Shown in pieces: positions 7,288 to 9,240 of a stretch of DNA of 64,000 nucleotides. The position numbers and the translations under genes are program-made. How positions within the stretch are numbered: the first letter of the stretch is position 1; each line of letters starts with the position of its first letter. The stretch lies in IMG/VR virus record IMGVR_UViG_2513237127_000006; one strand, given 5' to 3'. The DNA comes from a virus. Below the pieces are notes generated by a model, which saw only the letters and a list, made by a program, of their open reading frames with translations, did no database searches and had not been told where the DNA came from.

Positions 7288-7488
7288 ATGAACGCAAATC
7301 AGATCATCGATACCCTTGGCGGCACTGCTGCTGTGGCACGAATGTTTAAGATCAAACAGCCATCGGTAAGTGAGTGGCGCAAGACGGGCATTCCTTCGGC
7401 ACGGCTTCAGCTCCTTGAGGTTGTCCGCCCCGACATCTTCGGCGCTTCCCCCACAGGCCACGTGCAGGAGGTGTCCGATGCAGCCTAA
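7288..7488 (+). CDS. cro: Cro-like repressor
   Basis: 66-aa HTH (GGTAAVARMFKIKQPSVSEWRKTGIP) divergent from cI. Confidence 0.88.
   Translation: MNANQIIDTLGGTAAVARMFKIKQPSVSEWRKTGIPSARLQLLEVVRPDIFGASPTGHVQEVSDAA
7468..7484 (+). repeat. Cassette-boundary repeat R1 GAGGTGTCCGATGCAGC
   Basis: End of cro (EVSDAA-stop), contains SD + ATG. Confidence 0.85.
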
Positions 7489-7790
7489 ACCTGAGTTTTC
7501 AACTTCTTTTCTTTCCCGATTACCAAAGGTAGTGCGTCTCTGGTGGTTTCGATTACACAAGCAACCGCACTGTGTGGAATGTGGAAAACGGTTGGCTGGG
7601 TTTGAATTTCTCCGGGCGGGGGTTGGCCTTCTAGAACTACTGAAAGGTAGTGGTTTTCCATGTCCACGTGCGTGCAAATCCAAAACGCGCGGCTGCCAAA
7701 ACGGCCATCTTGGGGGCGAAATTTCCCGATGATAAATTGGCTCAAGGCTACATTCGTATGCAGTACTACAACGAATACTTTTTCTTCCAT
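7485..7790 (-). CDS. Cassette A1 cargo, 101-aa hypothetical protein
   Basis: GGAG SD 6 nt before ATG 7790; globular composition; stop abuts R1; near-identical paralog at 8609-8914. Confidence 0.65.
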   Translation of the reverse strand: MEEKVFVVVLHTNVALSQFIIGKFRPQDGRFGSRAFWICTHVDMENHYLSVVLEGQPPPGEIQTQPTVFHIPHSAVACVIETTRDALPLVIGKEKKLKTQV

Positions 7791-7881
7791 GCCGATCTCC
7801 GGTAGTGATTTGGTTGATTGGAAACACCAATTCCACCGGCAGGTTGGCTCCAACCCAATTTCGATTGGCTCTGCACTTACG

Positions 7882-7898
7882 GAGGTGTCCGATGCGGC
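7882..7898 (+). repeat. Cassette-boundary repeat R2 GAGGTGTCCGATGCGGC
   Basis: Direct repeat of R1 (1 mismatch). Confidence 0.85.
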
Positions 7899-8191
7899 GT
7901 GAAGGATTTCTCGATCTATCTGATTCCAGCCTGGAGCCTTCGTTAGGGGGGAGCAACCTGCTTATTGTGAGAGTCCCCTTCGCCGGTCCTCCCAGCGTAC
8001 CGACATTCTTTTGGACGGAAATATCCGGACCAGAGAATAAAAAGTTGGCGTATATCAAGTTTGAGCAGCGGCTTTTCATAAGGTCGGAATCACTGTTTGT
8101 AGCCACCGAATGGCGTCCGGCAGATTCCGGAGACTTGCCTCCAGAACCTTTTCTGCGATTTTCTGGATACCAGAAGCAGGGAGGGATTTAA
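7892..8191 (+). CDS. 99-aa ORF starting at the ATG inside R2 (real protein or bridge peptide)
   Basis: SD+ATG supplied by repeat; overlaps the antisense gene by 116 bp. Confidence 0.4.
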   Translation: MRREGFLDLSDSSLEPSLGGSNLLIVRVPFAGPPSVPTFFWTEISGPENKKLAYIKFEQRLFIRSESLFVATEWRPADSGDLPPEPFLRFSGYQKQGGI

Positions 8192-8567
8192 TTTGTTCAA
8201 TGACCTTCCCCTTGACAGTGTTATCCGCATCGCAATCGACGATCCGTTGCAGCAACAGATCACGCACGGTGTCTTGAGTCAGCCTGACGTTGACCACTCC
8301 AAGAATGGCGGAGAGACCACCATCCTCTGCGAGGAAGTCAATCCCTCGTGGTGTCAATGTAATCATGAACGCCCAATCATCGCTCTCGTTGATGCTTGTG
8401 CCTTCGCATTCAATGAGTCCATGTCCGGCAAGGTAATGCACCTCGGCTCGGATAATGTTCATGTCGAACTCAGGTGTATTAATCGCATTGATCGCTGCTG
8501 GCCACGGGTAAACCTCACGGGCAAGTTCGAGCAAGCGACGTTGTCTATTCCGATTAAATTTATCCAT
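8076..8567 (-). CDS. Cassette B cargo, 163-aa hypothetical protein with winged-helix-like N-terminus
   Basis: Strong AAGGAGG SD; YLAGHGLI...ITLTPRGIDFL pattern typical of wHTH phage proteins. Confidence 0.75.
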   Translation of the reverse strand: MDKFNRNRQRRLLELAREVYPWPAAINAINTPEFDMNIIRAEVHYLAGHGLIECEGTSINESDDWAFMITLTPRGIDFLAEDGGLSAILGVVNVRLTQDTVRDLLLQRIVDCDADNTVKGKVIEQIKSLPASGIQKIAEKVLEASLRNLPDAIRWLQTVIPTL

Positions 8568-8591
8568 TTATTGCCCTCCTTGGGGGCTGTC

Positions 8592-8608
8592 GAGGTGTCC
8601 GATGCGGC
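8592..8608 (+). repeat. Cassette-boundary repeat R3 GAGGTGTCCGATGCGGC
   Basis: Exact copy of R2 after unrelated sequence. Confidence 0.85.
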
Positions 8609-8914
8609 CTAAACCTGAGTTTTCAACTTCTTTTCTTTCCCGATTACCAAAGGTAGTGCGTCTCTGGTGGTTTCGATTACACAAGCAACCGCACTGTGTG
8701 GAATGTGGAAAACGGTTGGCTGGGTTTGAATTTCTCCGGGCGGGGGTTGGCCTTCTAGAACTACTGAAAGGTAGTGGTTTTCCATGTCCACGTGCGTGCA
8801 AATCCAAAACGCGCGGCTGCCAAAACGGCCATCTTGGGGGCGAAATTTCCCGATGATCAATTGGCTCAAGGCTGCATTTGTATGCAGTACTACAACGAAT
8901 ACTTTTTCTTCCAT
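8609..8914 (-). CDS. Cassette A2 cargo, paralog of 7485-7790
   Basis: Two aa differences from A1 (V14A, F19L). Confidence 0.65.
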   Translation of the reverse strand: MEEKVFVVVLHTNAALSQLIIGKFRPQDGRFGSRAFWICTHVDMENHYLSVVLEGQPPPGEIQTQPTVFHIPHSAVACVIETTRDALPLVIGKEKKLKTQV

Positions 8915-9005
8915 GCCGATCTCCGGTAGTGATTTGGTTGATTGGAAACACCAATTCTACCGGCAGGTTGGCTCCAACCCGATTTCGATTGGCTCTGCAC
9001 TTACG

Positions 9006-9022
9006 GAGGTGTCCGATGCGGC
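9006..9022 (+). repeat. Cassette-boundary repeat R4 GAGGTGTCCGATGCGGC
   Basis: Exact copy of R2. Confidence 0.85.
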
Positions 9023-9240
9023 GTGATGGTTTGGAACGGACACGTGCTCGTGTACCCGTTTCTATGGACGCACTCCGCGTCAAGGAATACGAGGCTAAAG
9101 CCGAACTGCTGCGGTTGAAAGCAGCAGCAATAGACGATCCCTTACTTAAAGAGCGTCTTTTGGCGCAGTCCAGCCTTGCATCTCTTGGTGCAAAGCGAAT
9201 TGCAAATCTTTGTAACTCATTCAAACGGTGTGCCGTTTGA
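9016..9240 (+). CDS. 74-aa helical ORF starting inside R4
   Basis: SD+ATG from repeat; amphipathic helical composition. Confidence 0.45.
   Translation: MRRDGLERTRARVPVSMDALRVKEYEAKAELLRLKAAAIDDPLLKERLLAQSSLASLGAKRIANLCNSFKRCAV

Follow-up and report, generated by a model that had tools for sequence, protein, structure and literature searches.

A repeated cro-linked overlap junction as a probable module boundary in the early region of Xylella lambdoid prophages

Introduction

Boundary or linker sequences at the mosaic junctions of lambdoid phages go back to Susskind & Botstein 1978 and Clark et al. 2001, both as cited in PMC3029335, and such linkers are proposed as sites of homologous exchange between modules. 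In T4-type phages, PeSL motifs flank non-essential open reading frames (ORFs) and mediate modular shuffling and the formation of mini-circles (Arbiol et al. 2010, PMC2839356; PMC4122927), and the prophages of Xylella are recombining mosaics (PMC2605562). Here we describe a short repeat, named R, which occurs four times behind the cro gene in the IMG/VR virus record IMGVR_UViG_2513237127_000006, a member of a Xylella lambdoid prophage family. The whole stretch of DNA analyzed, 64,000 nucleotides, is called the window, and plus-strand genes are referred to as rightward and minus-strand genes as leftward.

How phage mosaics arise, through short conserved linkers or through random joining on which selection then acts, has long been debated and still is. 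For this question the locus supplies a compact natural series, with 12 or more layouts, 14 pairings at the junction and several prophages in one host genome. As the linker has clear limits and a function that is easy to see, it lends itself to a mutational test. The original prediction took the region for a plug-in cassette system with R as its recombination handle, and knew of no earlier description of the arrangement; the second of these points has to be given up, as the lambdoid linkers (cited in PMC3029335) and the T4 PeSL (PMC2839356) are of the same kind. On the comparative evidence, R is probably one of the boundary (linker) sequences that mark mosaic phage genomes, with no dedicated cassette-capture system behind it.

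Results

Structure of the repeat and of the slot behind cro

An exact pattern search of the window with GAGGTGTCCGATGC(A/G)GC returned the four positions that had been predicted, 7468, 7882, 8592 and 9006, all of them repeated at +42552; shuffled sequence yielded 0.05 matches on average. The window consists of a 42,552-bp record that wraps around, 1–21448 and 42553–64000 being 100% identical, and because of this wrapping the eight matches to the 17-mer represent four true copies. Features located in the first 21.4 kb of the window show up twice, and repeat counts are to be halved.

The R copies are spaced 414, 710 and 414 bp from start to start. The full repeated unit is 22 nt long (7467–7488, 7881–7902, 8591–8612 and 9005–9026) and begins with a GGAGG ribosome site, contains the ATG of the rightward ORF that follows, and ends on the TAA or TGA stop of the ORF that precedes it. 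That each copy ends one plus-strand ORF with EVSDAA-stop and starts another agrees with the ORF list at all four sites: the ORFs ending within R are cro (copy 1) and those at 7660–7902, 8193–8612 and 8784–9026 (copies 2–4), and those with their ATG inside R start at 7478, 7892, 8602 and 9016. The three predicted minus-strand ORFs with ribosome sites of their own (7485–7790, 8076–8567 and 8609–8914) were likewise recovered, the sites being of the GGAG type. Copies 2 and 4 form the right end of a conserved element of about 90 bp, named 'up' (7791–7881 and 8915–9005). The left flank of copy 3 is the B start region, which shows no relation to what flanks copies 1, 2 and 4, and R3 is indeed preceded by sequence unlike that before R1. 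The features of the slot, from cro to the ribbon-helix-helix (RHH) gene, are as follows.

7288–7488, plus strand: cro, 66 aa, ending in ...QEVSDAA-stop in copy 1 (P22_Cro, E 3.8e-7; phrog_8008, E 4e-24)
7467–7488, plus strand: R1 (cro / A), with GGAGG, the ATG of A+ and the cro stop TAA; the A− stop abuts it
7485–7790, minus strand: A− copy 1, 101 aa, with profile homologues and a GGAG-type ribosome site
7478–7732, plus strand: A+ copy 1, 84 aa, antisense to A−, starting at the R1 ATG; coding status ambiguous
7791–7881, minus strand: 'up' copy 1, conserved 5′ region and ribosome site of leftward cargo
7881–7902, plus strand: R2 (up / B module), from the repeat match
7899–8075, plus strand: left part of the B module, made up of the B 3′ flank and the start of a 99-aa ORF (7892–8191) of the ORF list
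8076–8567, minus strand: B, a leftward cargo gene of 163 aa (phrog_3983, E 2.7e-51); the B module spans 7899–8567
8591–8612, plus strand: R3 (B start / A), sharing with the other copies the 17-mer plus CTAA only
8609–8914, minus strand: A− copy 2, from the ORF list, overlapped by A+ copy 2 (8602–8856, plus strand)
8915–9005, minus strand: 'up' copy 2, 100% identical to the L049 allele
9005–9026, plus strand: R4 (up / X), from the repeat match
9016–9240, plus strand: X, 74 aa, directly after cro-R in the simplest relatives (L030, L025/L005)
9294–9482, plus strand: NikA-like RHH protein, 62 aa (PF21983, E 7e-6; phrog_4113, E 2e-28)

The same phage carries a second junction-type repeat that bounds a module: an exact 42-bp direct repeat (5117–5158 and 5661–5702) flanks a 544-bp unit in the leftward early operon and carries a AGGAGATAT ribosome site on the minus strand.

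Layouts of the slot among related prophages

The exact 17-mer was detected in 48 IMG/VR stretches. Of these, 27 are loci of related Xylella prophages, and the other 21 are chance matches that fall within unrelated genes, about the number expected for a collection of that size. Further loci were added by a search with a conserved 23-mer of 'up'. The RHH gene is the right anchor of the variable slot, with 91–98% identity in 24 of 24 anchored loci and a ratio of nonsynonymous to synonymous substitution rates (dN/dS) of 0.12–0.23. In the 27 loci together with one RNA-library contig (X1), at least 12 layouts were found between cro and this gene, and the distance from the first R to the anchor takes values of 133, 285, 447, 495, 565, 627, 699, 763, 1072 and 1391 bp, with 1823 bp in the window. 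The prediction that the number, order and content of modules between cro and the gene at 9294 would vary among relatives is thus borne out. The layouts are listed with the working numbers of the loci.

cro-R-X: L030, L025
cro-R-A-up-(X tail): L049, L006, L022 and others
cro-R-A-up-R-X: L037, L017, L053
cro-R-A-up-R-B-R-X′: L032
cro-R-A′-up-R-Y2: L003, L036
cro-R-(Y′ start)-F-up-R-(Y end): L007, L056
cro-R-Y: L026
cro-R-(Y start)/C-up-(X tail): L034, L021
cro-R-(B left part)...X: L041, L051
cro-R-...G-up-R-X: L057
cro-R-A″a-up-R′-A″b-up-(other downstream): L052
deletion form: L045

In the X1 contig, 7466 is joined to 7881 and the sequence continues through B and R3 into A, giving cro′-R-B-R-A, a B-A order that is the reverse of that in L032. 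The left segment of B directly follows cro-R in L001/L041, L051 and the X1 contig. Several layouts are found within single records or genomes: G001, a 129-kb provirus record, contains three prophages with three different slot layouts, and several other IMG genomes contain two loci each. The final 45–60 nt or so of cro (7424–7484 in the window) are 84–98% identical between alleles whose proteins are only about 50% identical (L001, L002, L051 and others).

In the Xylella phage Xfas53 (L068, GQ421471.1 12406–13142), only the last 60 nt or so of cro and R lie between cI and gp18, with no space for an intact cro. The annotated 380-bp 'repeat regions' of Xfas53 were considered as copies of these cassettes and rejected, for they match window 10067–10433; the three tandem regions (gp20 and gp21, 'repeat-encoded proteins') correspond to the sRNA-Xcc1/Bro-N leader region.

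Exchange at R and breakpoints elsewhere

A table of R-like copies and their flanks yielded 14 pairs of left and right partners. The 17-mer, with 0–1 mismatch, stands between three kinds of left flank (cro tail, 'up' and B start) and at least nine kinds of right flank. As left partner, cro is followed by A, the left part of B, G, X, Y, Y′ or one further type; 'up' by the left part of B, X, Y end or Y2, with up′ leading to A″b; and B start by A or X′. Since X (behind cro, 'up' or B start), the B module (behind cro or 'up') and A (behind cro or B start) each follow more than one left partner, these modules have been reassorted at R. Both cro|B and B|A joints are present at R in the RNA-library contig, and L032 lacks exactly 8609–9005, the segment between R3 and R4.

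Several observations weigh against R as the place of exchange. About eight breakpoints lie away from it: 'up' meets the X tail (7865>9236) at a microhomology of a few bases, L041 breaks at 8181>9055, the L045 deletion has its breakpoint elsewhere, the Y genes are broken by cargo F, G or C, and in L052, L054 and L061 'up' runs into a different downstream region. Recombination within R is, moreover, deduced from static sequence comparison, 17–22 bp is short for RecA-dependent exchange, and the same picture could result if illegitimate recombination were followed by selection for junctions that work. R is one among several places of past exchange. The original prediction that cassette boundaries coincide with the 17-mer accordingly holds for the 14 pairs and for the clean presence or absence of A, and fails at the roughly eight other breakpoints.

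The most probable explanation of the comparative pattern is the following. In this Xylella lambdoid prophage family, R would be the overlap by which cro is coupled to whichever rightward ORF comes after it, and the interval from cro to the RHH gene is a hypervariable slot. A module entering between two overlapping genes would have to bring a second copy of the overlap, or else one gene loses its end or its start; modules would be flanked by R because the cro stop and the start of the next gene overlap, so that insertion duplicates the overlap. The R copies and the shared modules would then offer homology for unequal recombination among related, often co-resident, prophages, by which modules may be added, removed, reordered and duplicated.

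An explanation that we consider unlikely, though it survives better than the others, is that R is kept by its function and not as a crossover site: DNA would enter illegitimately at any position, and the survivors would be those that rebuild the cro stop together with the ribosome site and ATG and thereby keep translation of the PR transcript going across leftward cassettes. R extends exactly from ribosome site to stop, and the internal R copies of the relatives have drifted by 1–4 nt at spacer or wobble positions, with GGAG kept in most and the ATG in all, a pattern that fits a functional junction. The rightward ORFs are chained from cro to X by overlapping stops and starts, also across other cargo in L007 and L034, and the many breakpoints outside R would be expected as well. 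In the window, however, R2, R3 and R4 are identical across all 17 nt although the copies of relatives differ, which suggests recent exchange or conversion between copies, and the clean R-to-R presence or absence of A (L032 against the window; X1 contig) is what a homology-guided unequal crossover produces. A crude ORF relay test was also not significant, the chain coverage of 1376/2195 nt being reached by 15% of antisense control windows.

A dedicated integron-like system, the strongest form of the plug-in idea, in which R is the core site and cargo is captured or excised as circles, for example with the DUF2800 nuclease and the single-stranded DNA-binding protein (SSB), is highly improbable. 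The modules do lie between direct repeats of one short sequence with variable order and number, the nuclease and SSB are encoded in the early-left operon, and T4-type PeSL cassettes form mini-circles (PMC2839356). Yet no tyrosine or serine recombinase domain was found in the tested ORFs at 722–5657 and 10080–14715 or in any ORF in 7288–9727 (within 6.7 kb on the left side and 4.6 kb on the right), and an inverted-repeat search of 6500–10500 returned only two unrelated pairs, none at the boundaries. The predicted lack of an IntI-like integrase and of attC palindromes was thereby confirmed for the tested ORFs and the boundaries. DUF2800 and SSB form a common general recombination and replication pair and are not site-specific. 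An ordinary translational role explains the conservation of R, breakpoints occur elsewhere and inside modules, and, as set out below, the A-B-A order of the window traces to a crossover inside B. A dedicated plug-in system is therefore not supported.

Origin of the A-B-A layout

L032 agrees with the window without a single mismatch over a stretch that begins 2.8 kb or more to the left of cI and reaches 8318. Seven mismatches follow (8319, 8382, 8406, 8436, 8448, 8572 and 8606), and the identity is 92–98% further rightward; at 8319, 8382 and 8406 the bases of L032 are those of the X1 contig, and this pattern places the switch of parent inside B. On these differences, the A-B-A layout is best read as a crossover inside B between one parent with cro-R-A-up-R-B, as in L032, and another with B-R-A-up-R-X. 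The only crossover that can be mapped in this phage falls inside B and not at R. Exchange at R is still needed to derive the A-B and B-A orders from single-module phages.

The two A copies (7468–7898 and 8592–9022) are 98.2% identical, R3-A2-up2-R4 being compared with the first copy over 441 nt. Their differences are clustered at 7734–7860, in the right third of the module, with one more in R, and the variants are known in other alleles; since in addition up2 matches the L049 allele at 100%, the second A is not a fresh local duplication. A local tandem duplication of the 1124-bp unit R-A-up-R-B without any part for the 17-mer, to which the identity of the A copies and a 1124-bp spacing fitting 1.4 tandem units would correspond, is already disfavoured and barely credible, given these clustered differences and the L049 allele, the right half of B, which is a different allele from that of L032 and calls for two parents, and the two R copies within the unit itself, between which relatives carry A or B singly.

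Leftward cargo genes

B is a real leftward gene. It matches phrog_3983 over its full length, with a weak DUF2513 match (E 2.9e-4) under the cutoff, and 5/5 of its differences from the L032 allele are synonymous in the leftward frame.

A− is also a real gene, of a family that is mostly convergent to cro. A profile of six alleles, run against 1.8 billion proteins, retrieved homologues of 91–106 aa with E 4e-19 to 5e-6, and their alignment displays protein-like conservation (F.VVL, DG..G.HP.W.C, HIPHS.VV.V.ETT and LPFGF). The homologues stand tail to tail with a cro-like helix-turn-helix gene in 5/6 of the contexts read (L059, L061, L065, L067 and L069), with a cI-like gene beside that cro in L061, L065 and L069; the exception is L066, in which a same-strand gene lies downstream of the A− homologue. 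GC-rich metagenome and provirus contigs are included among these contexts, and a search for further loci of the A family with alignment A5 added one locus. The atlas cluster scores of A− are 0.98, 0.93 and 0.92. The AF2 models are of low confidence, with pLDDT 57.5 for A− and 60.3 for A+. In L069, a provirus with 68% GC, cro ends in ...QEGEAA and a GTG-started ORF begins 2 nt past the stop.

A search against the defence families of PADLOC, which had been suggested for the cargo, gave no match for A−, B, F, G, Y, X, C or A+. No Pfam match was obtained for F, Y, C and long-X, and X had no family match in Pfam-type and phrog profile searches. The GC contents are 47% for A, 50% for B, 49% for cI, 51% for X and 51% for the anchor, with 56.7% for the whole genome. 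The placement of the cargo on the minus strand was right in that A− and B are real leftward genes, but for A a rightward ORF started by the repeat is maintained too.

The rightward frame over A

A+ (84 codons, from the ATG of R) is open in every allele examined, while A− has a stop in L036, lacks its start in L009 and has three stops in L052a. Compared between the A and A′ allele groups, A− shows a dN of 0.36–0.38 and a dS of 0.27–0.32, as compared with a dS of 1.2–1.4 for cI at similar dN; dN/dS is about 0.5 for A+ and 1.1–1.4 for A−, and this relation is reversed in L052b. The substitution pattern over A is the kind that a second constraint acting on this DNA leaves behind, weakened by several points that count against a coding role of A+, among them the poor AF2 models. 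Its conserved motifs (CxxC and RIR) are no independent evidence, because they are the antisense images of the A− motifs IPHS and PFGF. Tests for dual coding of A+ by synonymous resampling were not significant (P = 0.15 and 0.12), those by codon permutation gave 0.0025 and 0.06 against a baseline of 2.7% of 100-codon windows, and A+ was not recognised by a protein language model (low atlas recognition score).

At L052:5742–6435 (IMGVR_UViG_2898359296_000002), the A module is present as a divergent tandem pair, with a junction copy for each member. The leftward ORF of module 1 has three stops and its rightward ORF is intact; in module 2 the leftward ORF is intact and the rightward one is open without the Cys motif.

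It is possible, though rather doubtful, that the A segment is a true antisense overlapping pair, composed of the 101-aa A− and an 84-aa Cys-rich A+ coupled translationally to cro. If so, R would travel with A as the initiation site of A+, and the L052 paralogues would have split the functions, with A+ only in copy a and A− in copy b. Alternatively, the A+ frame may be open merely to keep the PR transcript translated across the cassette.

The 'up' element and expression of the cargo

The 75–90 bp or so upstream of the A− ATG are almost invariant before unrelated cargo, namely A, A′, F, G (which is gp18 of Xfas53) and C. In Xfas53, 'up' precedes gp18, which lies directly upstream of cI on the same strand, the cro-tail remnant and R being located between the two. 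B has no upstream element of its own, with 24 nt between its ATG and R3. Beyond R, no nucleotide homology was detected between 'up' and the 3′ half of cro (score 14 against a shuffle mean of 14.7).

A− and B would be read from a leftward transcript that starts at a candidate promoter or leader in 'up' and covers the cargo and then antisense cro and cI; toward cI, this proposed transcript would run in the manner of that from lambda PRE. The minus strand of 'up' contains TAGAAT in most alleles and TGGAAT in copy 1, with no recognisable -35. Against such a promoter speak the failure to call any consensus sigma-70 promoter in 6300–9800 and the unstranded nature of all RNA matches to the locus. The terminator scan of 6300–9800 found only two sites, both at 6839–6856 and far from any R copy. 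Three raw-read RNA runs placed 0 reads on the stretch; in the unstranded contigs of run X1, the depths are 146–209 for cI, 146 for cro, 278 for A, 74 for B and 11–20 for X. Depths of A and B that are comparable to cI and above X fit a leftward transcript and are suggestive at best. The original prediction that the cargo could be expressed in the lysogen and silenced by PR on induction likewise meets only these unstranded matches.

Neighbouring genes and other elements

To the left of cro, the divergent repressor gene is 100% identical in L032 and 97% identical in L037, and its dN/dS against other alleles (0.14–0.33) is that of a normal coding gene; in the related prophage L061, the gene adjoining cro has HTH_3 and Peptidase_S24. 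The DUF2800 nuclease and DUF2815-type SSB named in the original prediction are both present. The features outside the slot are given below.

6444–7214, minus strand: cI-type repressor ORF, 256 aa, divergent from cro, from the ORF list
722–1291, minus strand: Enc34-type (ex-DUF2815) single-stranded DNA-binding protein (PF10991, E 8e-43)
1288–2565, minus strand: DUF2800 / PD-(D/E)XK nuclease (E 2e-91), adjoining the SSB in the leftward operon

On the right side, a D5-type primase-helicase is encoded at 11039–13606. In the leader of a Bro-N gene (10080–10940), at 10199–10284 on the plus strand, the Rfam family sRNA-Xcc1 (RF02221; 79.5 bits, E 4e-14) is matched over its full length; it is the sole match of the Rfam scan, which gave none within the cassettes. 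A 24-nt motif (TTGGAAAAYCCGCCACAGGACACC-like, 75–100% identical) occurs in four copies across the late region (18731, 21485, 26073 and 29496) and may be a repeated regulatory or intergenic element.

Discussion

For the annotation of Xylella prophages, the analysis adds a family of small genes convergent to cro, and a shared upstream element with interchangeable leftward cargo by the immunity region.

Among the known systems, integrons resemble the R array in that small cargo genes are separated by a repeated site and vary in number and order. They differ in their IntI, which the tested ORFs do not contain, and in their attC-type palindromes and attI/Pc, both absent here; R is a simple direct repeat with a translational role.

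Extra genes of lambdoid prophages were reportedly described as morons by Juhala and Hendrix. A classical moron brings along a promoter and a terminator, and its base composition often deviates. Like them, A− and B are extra genes between conserved neighbours, oriented against the operon and plausibly expressed in the prophage, and the cro-R-X layout of L030 and L025, which is without cargo, agrees with a moron-type placement. Here, several cargo genes share one upstream element, which may hold a promoter, no terminators were called in the cassettes, and, unlike that of many morons, the GC content of the cargo (47–50%) matches that of the neighbouring early genes.

The PeSL of T4-type phages come closer: in both cases many copies of a short motif flank small, non-essential ORFs within a hypervariable region, and the insertions, deletions and replacements seen between close relatives are explained by recombination from copy to copy. 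A PeSL, however, is a transcription-unit boundary of lytic myoviruses, made of a sigma-70 promoter and a stem-loop terminator, and both activities as well as mini-circles have been demonstrated, whereas R is a translation-coupling junction of temperate prophages, in which neither promoter nor terminator was called.

The nearest relatives of R are the lambdoid linkers, which are likewise short, located at a gene boundary and conserved between unrelated flanks, with homology that starts or stops there; in the same way, the last 45–60 nt or so of cro and R link different immunity alleles to different downstream modules. What distinguishes R from them is that it consists of one defined translational overlap, stands four times in a row in one genome, and bounds leftward cargo within a rightward early operon, with A-B, B-A and A-B-A orders among relatives. 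The locus is a clear new example of the known linker sequences and no new kind of cassette machine; its particular points are the linker that is itself a translational overlap, the four copies in a row, the leftward cargo with a shared upstream element, and the permutations of order.

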